From the IMG/VR virus record IMGVR_UViG_2651869781_000010: DNA of 9,320 nt; one strand, written 5' to 3'. Positions 1-8,912 of this stretch are shown in pieces. Position numbers and translations under genes: made by a program. The DNA comes from a virus. Lineage: Duplodnaviria; Heunggongvirae; Uroviricota; Caudoviricetes. Within the stretch, counting starts at the first letter, position 1; each line of letters begins with the position of its first letter. Under the pieces are notes generated by a model. It was not told where the DNA came from and did not search any database. It saw only the letters and a list, made by a program, of their open reading frames with translations.

Positions 1-774
1 TATGTCAAAATTATCAAAATCGAAAGAATTGATTTTCTCATTAAATTCATCAAATTCCGCTTGTTTGATGCTTAATAAATCAGTTAACACCTCTTCTTCA
101 TCACCAACAAAGTTACCTACCTTTTCAATTAACTCTGATAACTTTTGTTTGTTTTTTTCTATTTCGTCACTAAGCTCATAATTACGAATTAAATTAGCAC
201 TATCAAACCCAAGCAGGTGACCTATGTATGGTTTCCAAAAAATGTGTTTTCCAATAAAATCTTTTAATCTAAATACATCAGTATAATCATCTTGCCCACG
301 CAGTGAATAGCCTAAGGCAGTCCGATAATCCCAACGCTTAATTACACTTAAATCAAAAAGTGCATCCAAACACTCTTTCGACCTCTCAAAGGGTAGCTCT
401 GGATAGTCCCATTCACTAACTGCTAAATCAGTAAAGTCTTGATGCTTCTGCTCATGTTTTATAATACTTATTTTTGTAGGTGAGGCAACTGAGCGACGAA
501 TCGTTACATAACCCCCTGAGTTAAGAGCCACTTCTAGATAAAAAACAAAACTCTCAAAAACATTAAAATTTTTAAATAAAAAATGATTTTTATTTTTTTT
601 CTTAAGTAAACAAAAATCTATTAGATCACATAATTTACTTTTCCCTAAATTATGCGTATCTTTGCCTCTATTCTCAGAACGTCTTATTTCACCGATAACT
701 ACATTAAGCCCATCATGAAACTTTATAGGACTAAAAACATCTTTTTTATTAGAGTAAATTTTTGATAGTTTCAT
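1..774 (-). CDS. ABC/SMC-type ATPase, N-terminal 258 codons only (gene continues past window start); candidate ATPase subunit of a Lamassu/ABC-3C-like system
   Basis: Hand translation of the minus strand from ATG at 774..772 gives MKLSKIYSNKKDVFSPIKFHDGLNVVIGEIRRSENRGKDTHNLGKSKLCDLIDFCLL..., which resembles the N-terminus of OLD/ABC-family ATPases (LNVxIGE ... GKS ... LIDF). The frame stays open to position 1. The ATG overlaps the TGA of the upstream 79-aa ORF (ATGA). The P-loop is non-canonical, with about 11 extra residues between GE and GKS. This ORF is absent from the supplied track because it is truncated. Confidence 0.55.
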   Translation of the reverse strand, partial: MKLSKIYSNKKDVFSPIKFHDGLNVVIGEIRRSENRGKDTHNLGKSKLCDLIDFCLLKKKNKNHFLFKNFNVFESFVFYLEVALNSGGYVTIRRSVASPTKISIIKHEQKHQDFTDLAVSEWDYPELPFERSKECLDALFDLSVIKRWDYRTALGYSLRGQDDYTDVFRLKDFIGKHIFWKPYIGHLLGFDSANLIRNYELSDEIEKNKQKLSELIEKVGNFVGDEEEVLTDLLSIKQAEFDEFNEKINSFDFDNFDI

Positions 775-1010
775 TTTTTAACCCACTCAATCAAATCATT
801 TTTAGAATGATATTCGATCAGACCTAATAAATATAACAAACCTAGTGCGGGGTTGAATAAGGAAATAGCTCGCTCATCATATTTCTCAAGTGCATCATAA
901 AGCTCAGCATATTTACCAAATTTAGCTTTGCGTAGCTTTTTCATTAAGAATGCAGCTACCGCCAAGACGGTCAAATCTGGATGTGAATTCTTATTAGGAA
1001 GCAAGCTCAC
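771..1010 (-). CDS. small (79 aa) helical protein, candidate middle component (LmuC/ABC-3C MC-like) of the three-gene system
   Basis: ORF from the track with GTG start at 1010..1008, preceded by AGGAG (complement of 1016-1020) at about 6 nt. It overlaps the upstream gene by 17 nt and the downstream ATPase by 4 nt (ATGA), indicating translational coupling. No recognisable catalytic motif. The functional label rests on size and position only. Confidence 0.55.
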   Translation of the reverse strand: MSLLPNKNSHPDLTVLAVAAFLMKKLRKAKFGKYAELYDALEKYDERAISLFNPALGLLYLLGLIEYHSKNDLIEWVKK

Positions 1011-1941
1011 AGCTATCTCCTATATCACAATTATAATACATATAGTAAACCATTATTCTTGTTAATTTTTTATTTTTGTGCAGATCTGAATCCCTTGCAA
1101 TCAGTAGTTCAATCATCACCTCGAGAATTCGATCAAAATCATGATAATCCTTTTTATAAACACATATTTTAGCTGCAAGCTCATCTGCGCTTTCAATATA
1201 TTTTTTTTGATATGCGCTATTATCAGGATGAGATAAAAAATCCGAAATTTCAGTAATCTCAGCGATTTTTTTCTTAATAAGCTCAGCGTAACTGTTGCTT
1301 AAGTTATTTATTTTATTTTTCTGTAGAAAATCCACTCTAAAAATATGTGATGAAATAGTCTTATCTGTTAATTTACCAAGAGATGTATTTATACCTATAA
1401 TAACTTCTGCCAGTTGTTCTGGATCGATATTAATAAGCACATCGAATGGGTTAAGACCGGCCATTTCAGGCACATGTGGAAATACCTTAAAGTACCTCTC
1501 CATAGTTTCTATCCCAATCAACCCTATGTTGAATTTATCTAACCCGGTTTGGGTACTTATAAAATCCAGAATGTTTTTATTTGCCTCAGCAGGTAGTCGT
1601 CTATTGGCAAACAACAAATAATTATTAATTTTATCTTCATCAATTAATTTTTGTATTTTTGGTAATTCTACATTCAAAACTGAGGTTGTATTACCAAAGA
1701 AATCAGCATCAGAAAATTTTCTGTTATGATTTATAGTATGCTTAGCCTGTATTATGGTTAAACCATCCCATGGCCTGGCTTTACTAGGGTATGCTTCAGC
1801 TACACCATCGAATCTTGAGTCACGTCCCCCATCCCGCCCATCAGCAAAGGATTGAGTTCCTATGCCTAAAAGATCATAGCAAAGGTAAACAACTAGGGTT
1901 TCAAATTGAAATGCCGATAAACTGCAGTAGTCATATTTCAT
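994..1941 (-). CDS. 315-aa protein with N-terminal Mrr-like PD-(D/E)xK nuclease motif plus a C-terminal helical domain of about 200 aa; candidate effector (LmuA-like)
   Basis: ATG at 1941..1939. The N-terminal segment ...SFADGRDGGRDSRFDG...(about 20 aa)...LTIIQAKH carries a DGGxD ... QxK pattern typical of the Mrr catalytic/restriction-endonuclease fold. It is the first gene of three overlapping genes. AT-rich codon usage matches the two downstream genes. Confidence 0.65.
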   Translation of the reverse strand: MKYDYCSLSAFQFETLVVYLCYDLLGIGTQSFADGRDGGRDSRFDGVAEAYPSKARPWDGLTIIQAKHTINHNRKFSDADFFGNTTSVLNVELPKIQKLIDEDKINNYLLFANRRLPAEANKNILDFISTQTGLDKFNIGLIGIETMERYFKVFPHVPEMAGLNPFDVLINIDPEQLAEVIIGINTSLGKLTDKTISSHIFRVDFLQKNKINNLSNSYAELIKKKIAEITEISDFLSHPDNSAYQKKYIESADELAAKICVYKKDYHDFDRILEVMIELLIARDSDLHKNKKLTRIMVYYMYYNCDIGDSCELAS

Positions 1942-2300: not shown

Positions 2301-2328
2301 TTAAAAATCCCGGTACTTGACCGGGATT
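2301..2328 (-). terminator. Rho-independent terminator candidate downstream of the ogr gene
   Basis: Perfect 9-bp inverted repeat AATCCCGGT (2306-2314) / ACCGGGATT (2320-2328) with a 5-nt loop. On the minus strand the stem is followed by TTTAA, giving an AUUUUUAA run. It lies about 20 nt after the ogr stop at 2349. Confidence 0.45.
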
Positions 2329-2348: not shown

Positions 2349-2621
2349 TCAGACAGGAATCTGCTGACGGCTTGACAGTTTTGACGCGGAGCCATAGCGA
2401 TTGAGCGTTTGCTGTTGTTTTACCGGGGCTTGTGATTTGTCTGGTTCCTGTTCATTGCGCCGGGGTTTCATGATTATCTTATCCACACTCTCCAGTGCCG
2501 TAAATGTGCAGGAACATTCCAGATTCTGGCACTGATACCACGAGCGTTTAACTGACGGAGCTTCATAGGCTGCTGTTCTGGCGTGTGCAACTGTACCGCA
2601 TTCCGGACATTTAAGTGCCAT
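2349..2621 (-). CDS. ogr: Ogr/Delta-family zinc-finger late-gene transcriptional activator (90 aa from the ATG)
   Basis: MALKCPECGTVAHARTAAYEAPSVKRSWYQCQNLECSCTFTALESV... carries the exact C-x2-C-x22-C-x4-C spacing and the AHxRT / YxQCxN / TFxxxESV motifs of P2 Ogr and P4 Delta. The track ORF begins at a GTG at 2630; the ATG at 2621..2619 with AGGAG 8 nt upstream is preferred. Single-domain, not duplicated as in P4 Delta. Confidence 0.85.
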   Translation of the reverse strand: MALKCPECGTVAHARTAAYEAPSVKRSWYQCQNLECSCTFTALESVDKIIMKPRRNEQEPDKSQAPVKQQQTLNRYGSASKLSSRQQIPV

Positions 2622-2626
2622 TAATA

Positions 2627-3178
2627 TCACTCCTGTATATCGTTAATGTCATTCAGGCGTTGCTGAAAACGCAGATGTTGTGCCGGGGTGTAAGAGCCCT
2701 GGCAATCACGAATCATCCCGGGGTCTGGCATCAAACCGGATTCATCCAGGATCTCACGATAATCCCCGGCAATTTCAGGCGGTGTTATTGCCAGCTGGCG
2801 AACCAGAGCACTGCGTAATATACGGGACGCAACGTCAACCCCTCCGCGCCCCTTCAGGAACGGAGCCAGTGCAGATGTCAGGGCTGCCCCATTCGCCTGC
2901 ATAAAATTGCTGAGAGCAGCTTCTGTGCAGGCCTCCATCAATAAATGCTGCGAGTAAATGCATTCGCGAGCAGCACAGTTAATTTGCCATTTCAGCACAT
3001 CCAGACGTTCCCGCAGTAATTCGAGCTGTCGGGCATAATCTGTTGGTTTTTCTGTGGCAGCGAGGAGAGATGCTATCTGTTGTTCAACGGCTTTTCGGGT
3101 CTCACTATGTCCGGCCCACAGAATACGGGCATTCCGAAAACTGGTAAGTGCCTGGTCAGGTGTGCCTCGGGCCGTCAT
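2627..3178 (-). CDS. psu: Psu-like protein (polarity suppression / capsid decoration), 183 aa
   Basis: All-helical 183-aa protein. Segments KWQINCAARECI, FMQANGAALTSALAPFL and YTPAQHLRF resemble P4 Psu as I remember it (KWQVNQAAGRYI, FMQQHGTALAAALAPEL, FTPAQNMIF). Length is close to P4 Psu (190 aa). The ATG overlaps the stop of the upstream gene (ATGA). The comparison is from memory, not from an alignment. Confidence 0.55.
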   Translation of the reverse strand: MTARGTPDQALTSFRNARILWAGHSETRKAVEQQIASLLAATEKPTDYARQLELLRERLDVLKWQINCAARECIYSQHLLMEACTEAALSNFMQANGAALTSALAPFLKGRGGVDVASRILRSALVRQLAITPPEIAGDYREILDESGLMPDPGMIRDCQGSYTPAQHLRFQQRLNDINDIQE

Positions 3179-3918
3179 ACAGCTTTCTCCTTCTCAGCAA
3201 GTTCCTGACGAACCTTTATTTTATGCATAGCTGCCGGAGAGAGTTGATTACTGAAATCCAGACGCGCCGCATAATCCGGGGCAACTCCCGCCAGTTTAAA
3301 CACCGGGTCCTGTTCAGGCATCGCATCGTTAGCCAGAGCCGGTCTGGTGATATGTTTATGAATAAAGTCTTTCAGCACTGTGTCCGGGTCATTAACTGAA
3401 TTCACCACACCCACAACGGCACTGGCTTCCCGGCCCATTGTGGATTTAAGCAGGCTCAGCGTCTGAATAAGCGCTTTTCCATGCGACTGCATAAAATCTT
3501 CCCAGATTTGTTTTGCGCGAATATCCACAAGAATGTTATGCGCGTGGATATACTTTCCGGCTAATTCCGCAGCTTTCTGCGGCAAAAGTGCATTTTCGCT
3601 TTCCTGAGCCGCCAGCAGCTCATCAAAATCCTCAAGCGTTTCTCGTCCCAGCGCAATTTCCGTGCGCAGTTTTTTCATTTCCTTTGAGACCACGCCCTGA
3701 CTTTCACGAAACAGCGTGCGCCACTCCTCATTCAGTGTGTTCGTCGTGGCTTCCATTTCAGCGCGACGCTGGCGGATTGTCGCAATATTATCCGCTGCAG
3801 CTTTCTGCTGACGACGTGCTTCAAGCCATGCGTTTCTGGCTGTGTTCATGGTTTCCAGTGCCCGCTGCGTTACAGCCGGAAAAGTGGAAAGGTTGTTATT
3901 CACTGCGGTGTTGTTCAT
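3175..3918 (-). CDS. 247-aa coiled-coil protein, putative Sid-like capsid size-determination scaffold (assigned by size and position only)
   Basis: ATG at 3918..3916 with AGGAG 6 nt upstream. Helical, charged, Ala/Glu/Arg-rich sequence. It is the first gene of the late operon directly behind the Ogr-type promoter, and P4 Sid is 244 aa. No sequence motif was recognised. Confidence 0.4.
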   Translation of the reverse strand: MNNTAVNNNLSTFPAVTQRALETMNTARNAWLEARRQQKAAADNIATIRQRRAEMEATTNTLNEEWRTLFRESQGVVSKEMKKLRTEIALGRETLEDFDELLAAQESENALLPQKAAELAGKYIHAHNILVDIRAKQIWEDFMQSHGKALIQTLSLLKSTMGREASAVVGVVNSVNDPDTVLKDFIHKHITRPALANDAMPEQDPVFKLAGVAPDYAARLDFSNQLSPAAMHKIKVRQELAEKEKAV

Positions 3919-3952
3919 GACTTCTCCTGTCGGGTTGGTTCGTTACGTCAAT

Positions 3953-4008
3953 TGTGTCGTGGCTGACACAAGCACACTATCGGTGCTCAGTGTGTGGTGG
4001 CTGGCACA
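3953..4008 (-). promoter_or_regulatory. late promoter with two Ogr/Delta-type TGT-N12-ACA dyads (Psid-like)
   Basis: TGTGTCGTGGCTGACACA (3953-3970) and TGTGTGGTGGCTGGCACA (3991-4008) are near-identical, with centres 38 bp apart, and lie 35-90 bp upstream of the ATG at 3918. P2/P4 late promoters use a TGT-N12-ACA activator site centred near -55, and P4 late promoters have a second promoter-proximal site. Confidence 0.6.
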
Positions 4009-4096
4009 ACGGACGCTTGCGGTTATTCAGACGTGGCTATGAAAGCCAGCCAGATAAAAATACCCTCTGTTTCAGTCTGCTTTATGTCCCTGATGC

Positions 4097-4292
4097 GGTG
4101 GAACAGGTGAAACATGTGTTACTGCTTTGTTTTATAAAGCATTTATATACACTGCACCGGTGGAACATCGCGGGTAACAAGGTGGAACAGCGGATTGGCT
4201 GGCGTTACATCTGTTCCACCTCACTATTTCAGAAGGTGGAACAGGTTCAGCCCTGTAAAATACGGTTGTTCCACCTGTTTCACCTGTTACCC
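4097..4292. repeat. iteron cluster, candidate ori/crr-like replication element bound by the primase
   Basis: GGTGGAACA at 4097-4105, 4159-4167, 4181-4189 and 4235-4243. Variant GGTGAAACA at 4106-4114. Inverse copies TGTTCCACC at 4212-4220 and 4267-4275, and TGTTTCACC at 4276-4284. Close to the P4 alpha-binding octamer TGTTCACC. Located in the 400-bp non-coding gap immediately 3' of the primase gene. Confidence 0.7.
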
Positions 4293-4318
4293 TTAATAAA
4301 TAAGACTCACGCAAAGCC

Positions 4319-6991
4319 TTAACCCGGCACCTCGCTGTTGAAGACATAGAGCCTGCGGGGATTCATCTCTGGCGGGCGAATGGTTGTCTGGAGTTTGCCA
4401 TCAGTGGAGGGCAGCAGGTATCCACGATCTACGCACAGACGCGCCACCTTGCGCGGGTCAAATCCCCTGCAGATTTCTTTCCAGCCGGACGGCATGACAT
4501 AGAACGTAGTGACAGCTTCCGTGCCCTGCGCGGTACTGCCTTTCTCCACCCTGCGCCAGCCCACCATATTGCCGGGGCGGTTGCGCTCGTCATACCAGTC
4601 TGCAAAGCGGCTGTACTGATTCGCGGTAAAGAAACTGCGAACCTGCTCCAGTGCGGCGATATCTTCCTGATTGGCGGTGTGCCCGCGATCTTTCAGCCAT
4701 GCGTTCAGGCAGACGCGGGTTGCCCGCAGTGCTTCACCCTCAGGCCAGCCGGTGATACCCAGACGGGTTGCCAGTTCACCTGCCATCGCCACCAGTGCAA
4801 AGCGGTTCACAGCCCGGCCCACCTGATTGCCTGCATCTTTAGGAGTCAGGGCGGCAGCATATTCCTTCATCAGCGATTTTGCCTGTGCCGTTAGTCCGTT
4901 AAGATCAGCGGTCAGTGCTTTCAGCCACTCCCGGAACGGCGAACCGTAGTAGCAGGACGTGGCCCATTCAAGATGCTCTGCCAGAGCCTTGCCGCTGTCG
5001 AAGCCGTGCAGCTCCTCAAAAACGCCAAACTTCCCGGAATCGCTTGGGATCTGGATCATCCTGACTTCCATCCCGGCAAAAGTACGCTCACCGGCCTTTG
5101 CCGCATGTTCGGTCAGAGACAACTCGCCAGTTGAAAAGAACAACAGGCGCCACTGCTTACGGGTACGCAGCTCACCGTCCGTACCGGCACGGCCCTTGCC
5201 CTGACCGTTTGCCAGCATGTAGGCGATATTGCCTGCCTCGCGTCCGTCAACTTCCCGGATCTCATCAAGCATCATGGCGGCATCGTTGCGGCGGCTGGCG
5301 CATCCCTCCAGCGCGTTGCCGGTGGCCCGCCATGTCTGCCAGTAGTCAGGCCCGCCGCAGACGGAGGTTGCCGCTTTCATGGTGGTGGTCTTACCGTCTG
5401 TCGATTCCCCTTTTAGGTGGTAGCCGCCGCCGTCCATACCAACCAGCCGTAACAGTGGTGCAGCAAAGGCCAGGCTGACAGCAAATGCCACGCGGGAGTT
5501 GCCGGTACAGTAGCGGGATACATGCTCCCGCCATTCCTCTGTTGTGCCCGACACGCGGAAATCACGCCCCTGCACGGAAGTGGTCTGGAGAATGACACCC
5601 TCTGCACCTTCACCGCTGACCTCATCCTGCAGGACGTAAACCTGACCATGCCAGCCAGTACGACTGACGCAGGTCACGCGGCGTTCCGGTTTACACAGTG
5701 AGATATATTCCATCAGGCGTGCGCGTGCCTCACCGGTGGTGCTGATATAAGACAGCCCGTTAACCAGCAGTACCCGGCGCAGTTCCTCACCACTGCCGCT
5801 CAGCATTTCCATCGGCATCGCCCAGCGGCGACACTCACCCCACGTATCTTCCCATTCCAGCAGTCGTCCGAAGTTACCGCCATCGGCATCGCAGGTGATT
5901 GCCGTCACGCGCAGCGGGCTGCATATTTTGACGTTCTGGATCTCCGTCTCACCGTTGCGCTGTACCTGCTTTTCATACCAGAGATATTCCTGGGTAAGAC
6001 GGAACCCGTGCGGCAGTTGCGTGCGGCCTTCCCCGCACAGTACCAGACCGTTGCGAAAGGCTTCACGGGCACGGGTAATACCGTGCTCCCGATGAAAGTC
6101 ATTCCAGTCAGCCTTAATCTCTCCTGGTGGCAGGGTCATCCAGCCGCCAACAGCTTTTGCCGCCCGTTCAGCAAAGGCTCTGCCGGGATTCTCACCCCCG
6201 TCCTGAAAATCGTTATCACCGGCGATGATAATTTTTACCTCAGGCCAGCGTGCCCGCAGCGACTGCGCCACATTGGGCAGGTTGCCCGCAGATATGGCAG
6301 CCACTACGCATCCGGCAGTGAGCTGGCTTACCGTCAGCGCCGTAGCGTAACCTTCGGTAATCACCACCTGTACCGGTGGTTCAGACGGTAACGGGCTGAG
6401 CGACACAAACGCGCCTTTCATCGTGCTGCCGGGCAGTATGCTTTTTTCACCCGTCGGGGCGATAAGCTGTGCACCGGTCACGGCTCCGGTGTTGGTCGTG
6501 AGTGGTAACAGCAGGGAACCGGTAGGAAAATCCTTACCGCTGATATGCTGCACGCTTCCGGTCAGAGAGGCCGGGTATCCGGCGAACCCTTTTCCTGTCA
6601 GATAGGCGCTTTCTCCCGTGTGGCTCTCTTTCATCAGCGCCGCCACGGTAAGACCCATGTCGCGTTTAGGGGCTTTTTGTCTGGCAGGCTTAACAGGCAG
6701 TTCCTGCACATCCGGCACATTAAGCACCTGCGCCACCTCCTGCGCAGCCTTTCTGACGCTGTAACCGGTTACGAGCTTAACCAGATCCAGACCGTCACCA
6801 TTGCCACACTGGCTGCAGATCCACGTCCCGCGCCCGTCAAGGTCATCAAGGCGAAAACGATCCTTGCCCCCACATTTCGGGCAGGGACCGTGCCTGCCGT
6901 TTTCAGGTACATCAATACGCAGCATCTGCAGAATAACGGGCCATTTCCCCCGTGCGGCGGCTGAAATCTGCGTAACCGTCTGTATTGTCAT
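4319..6991 (-). CDS. P4 alpha-like primase/helicase (N-terminal zinc ribbon, TOPRIM primase domain, SF3/D5-type P-loop NTPase), 890 aa
   Basis: CPKCGG...CSQCG zinc ribbon near the N-terminus. VVITEGYATALT and IIAGDNDFQDGGENPG are TOPRIM acidic motifs. Walker A GESTDGKTT lies mid-protein. The ATG at 6991 overlaps the upstream stop (ATGA) and has a GAGGGGG Shine-Dalgarno sequence. The iterons lie just downstream. Confidence 0.9.
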   Translation of the reverse strand: MTIQTVTQISAAARGKWPVILQMLRIDVPENGRHGPCPKCGGKDRFRLDDLDGRGTWICSQCGNGDGLDLVKLVTGYSVRKAAQEVAQVLNVPDVQELPVKPARQKAPKRDMGLTVAALMKESHTGESAYLTGKGFAGYPASLTGSVQHISGKDFPTGSLLLPLTTNTGAVTGAQLIAPTGEKSILPGSTMKGAFVSLSPLPSEPPVQVVITEGYATALTVSQLTAGCVVAAISAGNLPNVAQSLRARWPEVKIIIAGDNDFQDGGENPGRAFAERAAKAVGGWMTLPPGEIKADWNDFHREHGITRAREAFRNGLVLCGEGRTQLPHGFRLTQEYLWYEKQVQRNGETEIQNVKICSPLRVTAITCDADGGNFGRLLEWEDTWGECRRWAMPMEMLSGSGEELRRVLLVNGLSYISTTGEARARLMEYISLCKPERRVTCVSRTGWHGQVYVLQDEVSGEGAEGVILQTTSVQGRDFRVSGTTEEWREHVSRYCTGNSRVAFAVSLAFAAPLLRLVGMDGGGYHLKGESTDGKTTTMKAATSVCGGPDYWQTWRATGNALEGCASRRNDAAMMLDEIREVDGREAGNIAYMLANGQGKGRAGTDGELRTRKQWRLLFFSTGELSLTEHAAKAGERTFAGMEVRMIQIPSDSGKFGVFEELHGFDSGKALAEHLEWATSCYYGSPFREWLKALTADLNGLTAQAKSLMKEYAAALTPKDAGNQVGRAVNRFALVAMAGELATRLGITGWPEGEALRATRVCLNAWLKDRGHTANQEDIAALEQVRSFFTANQYSRFADWYDERNRPGNMVGWRRVEKGSTAQGTEAVTTFYVMPSGWKEICRGFDPRKVARLCVDRGYLLPSTDGKLQTTIRPPEMNPRRLYVFNSEVPG

Positions 6992-8399: not shown

Positions 8400-8585
8400 A
8401 TGGCAACGGGTTCAACTAACAACAAGTCGCAGCAACTTAATGCTCGTTTCCCACATGATGTAGTTGCAGAATTAGAAAGCAACCTTGAAGATGGGGAAAC
8501 GAAAGCGCAATTTATTGTTACCGCTGTAAAAGGCGAGATTAAACGCCGACAGCGCAGGAAAAATAAGCTAGAGCAAGTAAGCTGA
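8400..8585 (+). CDS. small DNA-binding regulator, probably ribbon-helix-helix type (61 aa)
   Basis: ATG at 8400 with AAGGAG 8 nt upstream. The segment QLNARFPHDVVAELESNLEDGETKAQFIVTAVKGEI has a strand-helix-helix pattern typical of Arc/CopG-like proteins, followed by a basic tail (KRRQRRKNK). A terminator follows. Confidence 0.55.
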   Translation: MATGSTNNKSQQLNARFPHDVVAELESNLEDGETKAQFIVTAVKGEIKRRQRRKNKLEQVS

Positions 8586-8681: not shown

Positions 8682-8912
8682 TTAGTGATTTTCATGCCGT
8701 TCACCACGAGAGGCATATATTTGCTCTTGAATCCAGTGATCGACTTCGCTTTCAACAAATGAAATTGCACGAGTTCCTATTTTCACCGGGCGGGGAAATG
8801 TATTGTTTGAAAGCTGTTTGTAAAGCCATGCCTTGCTACGCTGAACGCGTCTTAACACCTCTTTTGCTGAGATAAGGGTCTGATTCTCTGAAAGGTTGTT
8901 TGCATATTCCAT
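8682..8912 (-). CDS. alpA: AlpA/Vis-family phage transcriptional regulator / excisionase-like protein (76 aa from the ATG)
   Basis: ISAKEVLRRVQRSKAWLYKQLSNNTFPRPVKIGTRAISFVESEVDHWIQEQI matches the AlpA/Vis helix-turn-helix signature (...S.STIYR....G.FP.PIKLG.R...W...E...WI). The track ORF begins at a GTG at 8957. The ATG at 8912..8910 with GGAG 8 nt upstream is preferred. Confidence 0.8.
   Translation of the reverse strand: MEYANNLSENQTLISAKEVLRRVQRSKAWLYKQLSNNTFPRPVKIGTRAISFVESEVDHWIQEQIYASRGERHENH

Follow-up and report, generated by a model that had tools for sequence, protein, structure and literature searches.

Two almost identical copies of the motif TGT-N12-ACA lie in tandem just upstream of a gene resembling sid of P4 in a 9320-nt stretch of viral DNA (IMG/VR record IMGVR_UViG_2651869781_000010; we refer to this whole stretch as the window). 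The question raised by the locus is whether the pair marks a late promoter of the P2/P4 type and, if so, how the two sites are placed with respect to the start of transcription and which genes they control. Late promoters of P2 have the consensus TGT-N12-ACA, and Ogr carries the motif CX2CX22CX4C (PMC3931495); the inverted repeats bound by Ogr are found at about −55 and the alpha subunit is needed (PMC3152322). The delta, psu and sid genes of P4 are trans-activated by P2 Ogr (PMC7552001), and a single promoter is common to psu, delta and sid (PMC13586616). An earlier note on this DNA had read the two dyads as an Ogr/Delta-responsive promoter, and we find this reading to be supported by homology, by exact conservation of the geometry and by purifying selection. 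Very probably we have here the late promoter that a P4-like satellite prophage uses for sid, situated on the minus strand, activated by Ogr/Delta and driving sid, psu and the gene of its own activator.

The dyad pair

The sequence elements at and around the pair, all on the minus strand, are as follows.

3991–4008, minus strand: distal dyad (site I), TGTGCCAGCCACCACACA on the transcribed strand; centre 3999.5, predicted to lie at about −55.5
3971–3990, minus strand: inter-dyad spacer of 20 nt
3953–3970, minus strand: proximal dyad (site II), TGTGTCAGCCACGACACA on the transcribed strand; centre 3961.5, predicted to lie at about −17.5
3951–3956, minus strand: candidate −10 hexamer CACAAT, the assignment as −10 being by inference
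3944, minus strand: predicted transcription start, an A, to within ±2 nt; the 55.5-bp offset is taken from P2 pO/pP
3924–3927, minus strand: Shine–Dalgarno sequence GGAG, 5 nt before the sid ATG; read from the sequence and kept in the family

On the strand presented, the 18-mers read TGTGTCGTGGCTGACACA (3953–3970) and TGTGTGGTGGCTGGCACA (3991–4008). Both are exact TGT-N12-ACA sequences and they are identical at 16 of 18 positions, the mismatches falling at position 6 (C/G, 3958 vs 3996) and position 14 (A/G, 3966 vs 4004). The tandem, nearly identical dyads claimed in the earlier note are thus exact in coordinates and sequence, with two interior differences only, and the centre-to-centre distance of 38 bp that it gave is borne out by the centres at 3961.5 and 3999.5. 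The operon runs on the minus strand from an ATG at 3918, so that upstream means higher coordinates, and the pair does lie upstream of the sid-like gene as had been said; the distance from the proximal dyad to the ATG is 35 nt.

A lone TGT-N12-ACA carries little information. Four matches occur in the window where 2.3 would be expected, a number reached by 45 of 200 shuffled sequences and thus not significant. The pairing, on the other hand, is significant: two dyads separated by a gap of 14–26 nt are expected 0.008 times per window and were seen in 20 of 3000 Markov simulations, while a pair sharing at least 10 of the 12 interior bases has an expectation of ~3 × 10⁻⁷. Position weight matrix (PWM) scores are 21.5 bits for the proximal and 21.1 bits for the distal dyad against 9.9 bits for the best match elsewhere in the window, although these high scores are partly circular since the matrix was built from the same promoter sites. 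Judged by exact motif and PWM together, the two dyads are the only strong sites of the window. The 9.9-bit match, at 2592–2609, falls within the CxxC codons of the ogr gene and we judged it to be there by chance. A second Ogr site resembling P4 PLL was not found by PWM elsewhere in the window, including the region upstream of the alpA-like gene; the matrix gives P4's own PLL dyad only 5.7 bits, so that weak sites could escape it.

The dyad unit recurs a third time, in degenerate form (ATTCAGACGTGGCT...), at 4025–4044, 36 bp upstream of the distal dyad. It matches the proximal dyad at 11 of 18 positions, is without both the TGT and the ACA half-site and coincides with a weak hairpin.

The late operon and its activator gene

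Downstream of the pair are three genes followed by a hairpin.

3175–3918, minus strand: sid-like gene, 247 aa, first of the operon; Pfam Psu domain (E = 1.8e-9)
2627–3178, minus strand: psu, 183 aa; Pfam Psu (E = 2e-44), 30% identical to P4 Psu
2349–2630, minus strand: ogr/delta, encoding a single domain; Pfam Ogr_Delta (PF04606, E = 7e-16)
2303–2327, minus strand: terminator-like hairpin behind ogr, ATCCCGGT-caagt-ACCGGGAT and then TTTTT; read from the sequence

Over an alignment of 226 aa, the product of the first gene and P4 Sid share 24% identity (E = 1e-12). The Ogr-type zinc finger gene that had been placed at the end of the operon is indeed the last gene, and its length of 90 aa holds for a start at the ATG at 2621, the reading frame being 93 aa long from the GTG at 2630 that overlaps the psu stop codon. 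Its product contains CX2C-X22-CX4C and is 47% identical to P2 Ogr over the 51 aa of the zinc-finger core and 45% identical to the first domain of P4 delta. Overlaps of 4 nt join sid to psu and psu to ogr, which suggests that the three late genes form one operon. The hairpin at 2303–2327 is likely to be the operon end; in the alignment its stem shows compensatory changes between families, and it is absent from the output of a simple terminator scan.

Promoter core and predicted start

The −35-like hexamer TAGTGT (3974–3979) is poor (2 of 6 matches) and lies 17 nt upstream of the −10 candidate, and no consensus sigma-70 promoter was detected within 3919–4060. This is what would be expected if the promoter is activator-dependent. 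The 3' half-site of the proximal dyad overlaps the −10 candidate.

In the annotated P2 record the site shared by pO and pP (TGTGTCAGTGATAAGCCA) is centred 55.5 bp from both mapped starts, and that of pF ~57–59 bp from its start. From the pO/pP distance we place the start of the sid-like transcript near 3944; the distal dyad would then be centred at about −55.5 and the proximal one at about −17.5. A3944 is the seventh base after CACAAT (3956 to 3951) and is 26 nt ahead of the ATG. The same arithmetic applied to P4 gives A9557, likewise the seventh base after CACAAT. Both the −10 and the start assignments rest on analogy. The P4 sid promoter is reported to be bound by delta at two sites, near −55 and near −18; the agreement of our predicted register with these footprints is a lead, not a test.

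Two other registers were considered and rejected. With the proximal dyad at −55, transcription would begin within sid, ahead of residues that can be aligned with those of P4 Sid. The distal dyad might also be shared with a divergent plus-strand promoter, after the manner of P2 pO/pP, but such a promoter would find neither a −10-like hexamer at a suitable distance nor a gene that it could drive. The proximal dyad appears from its sequence to be a site in its own right, because its left TGT, at about −26 to −24, has an invariance (below) that neither a −10 nor a −35 element explains.

Comparison with P4 and P2

The dyads upstream of P4 sid are TGTGTCAGGGCTGGCACA (9493–9510) and TGTCCGGTGTACGTCACA (9531–9548), with the sid ATG at 9583. 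Their centres, 9501.5 and 9539.5, are 38 bp apart and the proximal dyad is 35 nt from the ATG, exactly the spacing and the distance found in the window, and the two regions align in register, including the CACAATT directly after the proximal dyad. The resemblance to the two-site arrangement of P4 that the earlier note had pointed to is therefore seen in the P4 genome itself. In both elements the promoter drives sid, psu and delta, and the activator gene lies inside the operon. Since the proteins are only 24–45% identical and yet the geometry is the same, the layout of the promoter has stayed constant while the elements diverged over a long time.

There are also differences. The P4 dyads score 21.0 and 12.0 bits while those of the window score 21.5 and 21.1, both strong and near-identical, with the partial circularity of the matrix to be borne in mind here too. 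The gene order is sid-psu-delta in the window and sid-delta-psu in P4; Delta is a single domain of 90 aa in the window and a tandem duplication of 166 aa in P4. Finally, the P4 sid promoter is divergent from the early operon, whereas that of the window lies downstream of, and is co-directional with, the primase gene and the iterons. A DNA-level search of the phage collection with 3700–4320 gave nothing, and tblastn with Psu in the same collection gave P4 only, so that the homology to P4 is visible only at the protein level and in the promoter geometry. The comparison gives good support to the view that the window's promoter is the counterpart of the P4 sid promoter in a variant, rearranged satellite lineage, and as such an ordinary, fresh example of a known element.

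The likeness extends to the late promoters of P2. As two exact copies of TGT-N12-ACA, the dyads equal the published consensus (PMC3931495), in keeping with the claimed match to the P2/P4 activator site. The P2 promoters PP, PO, PV and PF share with the window this motif, a −35 that looks poor and an Ogr-family activator with CX2C-X22-CX4C. In P2 the site is centred ~55 bp upstream of the start, as is the distal dyad with respect to the predicted start. The P2 late promoters, however, have a single site, imperfect in P2 itself (e.g. TGTGTCAGTGATAAGCCA), against two exact sites in the window; they are without a second dyad at −18 and they drive the structural genes of the helper.

Conservation of the two-dyad geometry among relatives

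A strict scan of viral contigs for the two-dyad DNA pattern returned only the P4 family, the window family and ~20 unrelated chance matches. Such a scan is too biased to measure diversity and was therefore replaced by protein-anchored retrieval. Loci encoding relatives of Sid were collected from one genome per species, from public assemblies by way of four diverged homologues, and from viral contigs searched with a 19-sequence Sid alignment; a search of genome contigs with a two-sequence Sid alignment had given 7 close relatives only.

An exact TGT-N12-ACA pair was found upstream of sid in 70/70 loci, in which Sid is 41–100% identical. The loci span Escherichia/Shigella, Enterobacter, Citrobacter, Pantoea, Kosakonia and Serratia and comprise 50 distinct promoter sequences in at least 6 sequence families. 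The gap between the dyads is 20 nt in 63 of them and 21 nt in the other 7. In every family CACAAT continues from the proximal dyad and the ATG follows ~33–36 nt later; the sequence after the proximal dyad is GCACAATTGAC in all non-P4 families and CACAATTTTC in P4. The TGT half-site of the proximal dyad is invariant (70/70). What the families have in common within the dyads is no more than the outer TGT and ACA, the interiors being variable.

An Ogr/Delta gene accompanies the dyads in 67/72 loci. The activator is the single-domain form in 67/72 loci, the tandem 166-aa form being confined to P4, and the two-site design is thus not a consequence of P4's duplicated activator.

The canonical satellites of Pantoea, Kosakonia, Serratia and others resemble the window in the two-dyad geometry, in CACAATTGAC, in the order sid-psu-delta and in a single-domain delta of 90–97 aa. 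They differ from it in the interiors of the dyads, and their own two dyads are unlike each other. Their sid promoter is divergent from an operon running from alpA to alpha, the primase being of the D5_N/Pox_D5 type, in contrast to the co-directional arrangement of the window. It is preceded on the sid strand by a strong hairpin and T-run abutting the distal dyad, which has the appearance of an intrinsic terminator that would shield the sid promoter; in the window there is no more than a weak variant of this hairpin, lacking the T-run, at ~4030–4052. An example of the strong hairpin is GACCTTTTCCTGGCTGGCCAGAAGAAGGTC followed by TTTTT, and hairpins of this kind are found at loci such as L186 (2873–2907), L152, L213 and L169.

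Further dyad pairs were encountered in some of these elements. One element (L019, 4811–4866) has a second pair with the geometry of the sid promoter, that is, a 20-nt gap and an ATG 35 nt on. The reading frame behind it resembles, from a reading of its sequence, a tail gene of the P2 gpE type, and this element is without psu between sid and ogr. Pairs with a 40-nt gap occur in the cargo region of three loci (L008 and L021, 6347–6422; L022, 7620–7695).

Selection within the window's family

Compared in pairs, 24 distinct sequences of the window's own family diverge on average by 0.009 in the distal and by 0.022 in the proximal dyad. The corresponding values in the same set are 0.084 for the spacer, 0.086 for the 50 nt upstream and 0.089 for the third positions of sid codons. 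The dyads thus diverge 4–10 times more slowly than codon third positions or spacer, and the spacer itself evolves at an approximately neutral rate. This pattern indicates that the entire 18-mers, beyond the half-sites, are under purifying selection.

Context of the element

The remaining features of the window are the following.

8682–8912, minus strand: AlpA-like helix-turn-helix (HTH) gene
8400–8585, plus strand: small protein of the YlcI/YnfO family, the sole convincing plus-strand gene, facing the AlpA-like gene
4319–6991, minus strand: primase-helicase, 890 aa, with Zn-ribbon, TOPRIM and DUF927
4097–4285: iteron field between the primase stop and the dyads, with at least 8 copies of GGTGGAACA(G) in both orientations
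771–1941, minus strand: ABC-3C (ABC three-component) defence genes with CTD12 and MC8/MC6 domains, in a cargo hotspot downstream of the late operon

Read along the minus strand from 8912 to 771, the order is AlpA-like gene, small ORFs, DUF5375 protein, primase-helicase, iterons, dyads, sid-like gene, psu, ogr/delta, hairpin and ABC-3C. Of the core gene set of a P4-like satellite the window has an alpA-like gene, a primase, sid, psu and delta; a chromosomal copy in E. coli, 99.8% identical, adds the integrase, at its upstream end, and has an adjacent tRNA-Arg and all its genes co-oriented. By its gene content we identify the element as a P4-like satellite. The region is contained in 643 complete E. 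coli records. Another E. coli strain carries in the same cargo slot a gene for a YecA family protein, together with an IS66-family element that interrupts ogr.

The primase-helicase has the composition of a chimera: its residues 1–316 (Zn ribbon and TOPRIM) share 38% identity with P4 alpha, and the remainder is a DUF927 helicase. P4 alpha has instead a D5_N/DUF5906/Pox_D5 module, which is kept in the canonical relatives. The iterons resemble the type-1 ori repeats of P4 (GGTGAACA) with one extra G, and the field is probably a replication origin or crr for the TOPRIM-DUF927 primase. A scan of the window at Rfam gathering thresholds matched no family, P4-type immunity RNA included, and no homologue of epsilon/Phage_ASH was found in the window; immunity and derepression by the helper may consequently work differently from P4.

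A motif, CTTTTCC(C)TGGCTNGCC, has three settings. Most of the related loci have it immediately 5' of the sid promoter, ahead of the distal dyad; it follows the ogr terminator closely, in the window at 2279–2298 on the minus strand; and it is present at PLE of P4. The P4 (L001) copies are at 9460–9473 and 8724–8737. The copy behind ogr is part of a block of ~190 bp (2160–2350) that is conserved between families with 44–100% Sid identity, contains the repeated word GCATGA(A)AAC and sits where P4 has cos. Even with up to 3 mismatches allowed, the window does not contain the cos sequence of P2, and the block may be the packaging site of this lineage for a different helper.

Alternative explanations for the dyads

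The most serious alternative is that the promoter is a relic, in that transcripts reading through from the primase operon account for most expression of sid-psu-delta and the dyads have lost their importance in this rearranged lineage. Such read-through is made plausible by the co-directional genes, with no intrinsic terminator predicted from the primase stop at 4319 to sid, and some expression may indeed stem from it rather than from the sid promoter. Against a relic, the dyads are the most conserved non-coding bases of the family, 4–10 times below the neutral proxies, and both score like the best P4 site, as far as a partly circular matrix can say; we consider it unlikely. The position downstream of the primase gene and on the same strand could also mean that the dyads act as hairpins in RNA or DNA, such as a terminator or a processing site that ends the primase operon, and a 6-bp stem is possible in the proximal dyad. 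However, neither dyad is followed by a U-run and no terminator is predicted there, the region folds no better than shuffled sequences (z = 0.34), and the interiors vary between families without compensatory pairing, leaving stems of 3–4 bp. The pair is moreover present in the canonical relatives, where no transcription enters it from the primase gene. All this makes a hairpin role most improbable.

That the dyads bind some other protein, whether a host regulator such as CRP, a replication initiator or an AlpA/Vis-like protein, is also very unlikely. The half-sites TGTG...CACA do resemble those of CRP, the consensus of which, TGTGA-N6-TCACA, is equivalent to TGTG-N8-CACA, but the dyads read TGTG-N10-CACA and their half-site spacing is off by 2 bp. 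The iteron field at 4097–4285 adjoins the dyads and an AlpA-like gene is present at 8682–8912; the iterons are nevertheless a different word (GGTGGAACA), while spacing and half-sites fit P4 and P2 late promoters with annotated activator sites and the co-occurrence with an Ogr/Delta gene (67/72 loci) points to that activator. As to chance or a recent local duplication without function, the 16/18 identity and the degenerate third copy 36 bp further upstream might be taken to favour it, but the expectation of ~3 × 10⁻⁷ speaks against chance and the presence of the pair in 70/70 relatives, P4 among them, rules out a recent lineage-specific accident. This explanation can safely be set aside.

Proposed working of the promoter

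As an Ogr/Delta-activated late promoter, the element would work as follows. It would be a weak sigma-70 promoter with CACAAT as its candidate −10 and no usable −35, and would need a zinc-finger activator of the Ogr/Delta family, supplied as Ogr by a P2-like helper that infects or is induced, or else by the satellite itself as its 90-aa Delta. The activator would bind the TGT-N12-ACA dyads. From the distal dyad, near −55 and so at the classical activating position, Ogr would contact RNA polymerase's alpha subunit and recruit the polymerase. The proximal dyad, predicted near −18 and overlapping the −10 region, would be the second site that is typical of satellite sid promoters. The operon would then make more Delta in a positive feedback, and firing would be self-reinforcing because the activator gene is the last of the operon.

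With no intrinsic terminator predicted from primase to sid on the same strand, induction in this lineage may not depend strictly on a helper, and we speculate that read-through from the primase operon could prime Delta without one. An alternative logic would be that read-through from the derepressed early operon primes Delta and the −55 site then locks in activation, while the strong −18 site would either limit expression, by covering the −10, or stand in for the missing −35 contact. The wider proposal, in which the two sites, 38–39 bp apart with the second in the −10, form a universal, strictly conserved device of P4-like satellites independent of the duplication of Delta and serve here as a partly helper-independent late switch, we put forward only tentatively, and would not at present expect it to hold in full.

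The assignment annotates the helper-responsive switch of a satellite lineage that is very common in E. coli and the Enterobacterales, a switch that governs capsid hijacking through sid and psu and adjoins the satellite's defence cargo. The invariant two-dyad geometry, kept where Sid identity is as low as 41%, taken together with single-domain activators, provides a compact and testable signature for satellite late promoters. No new kind of mechanism is revealed, but an old question, that of what the −18 site does, is sharpened.
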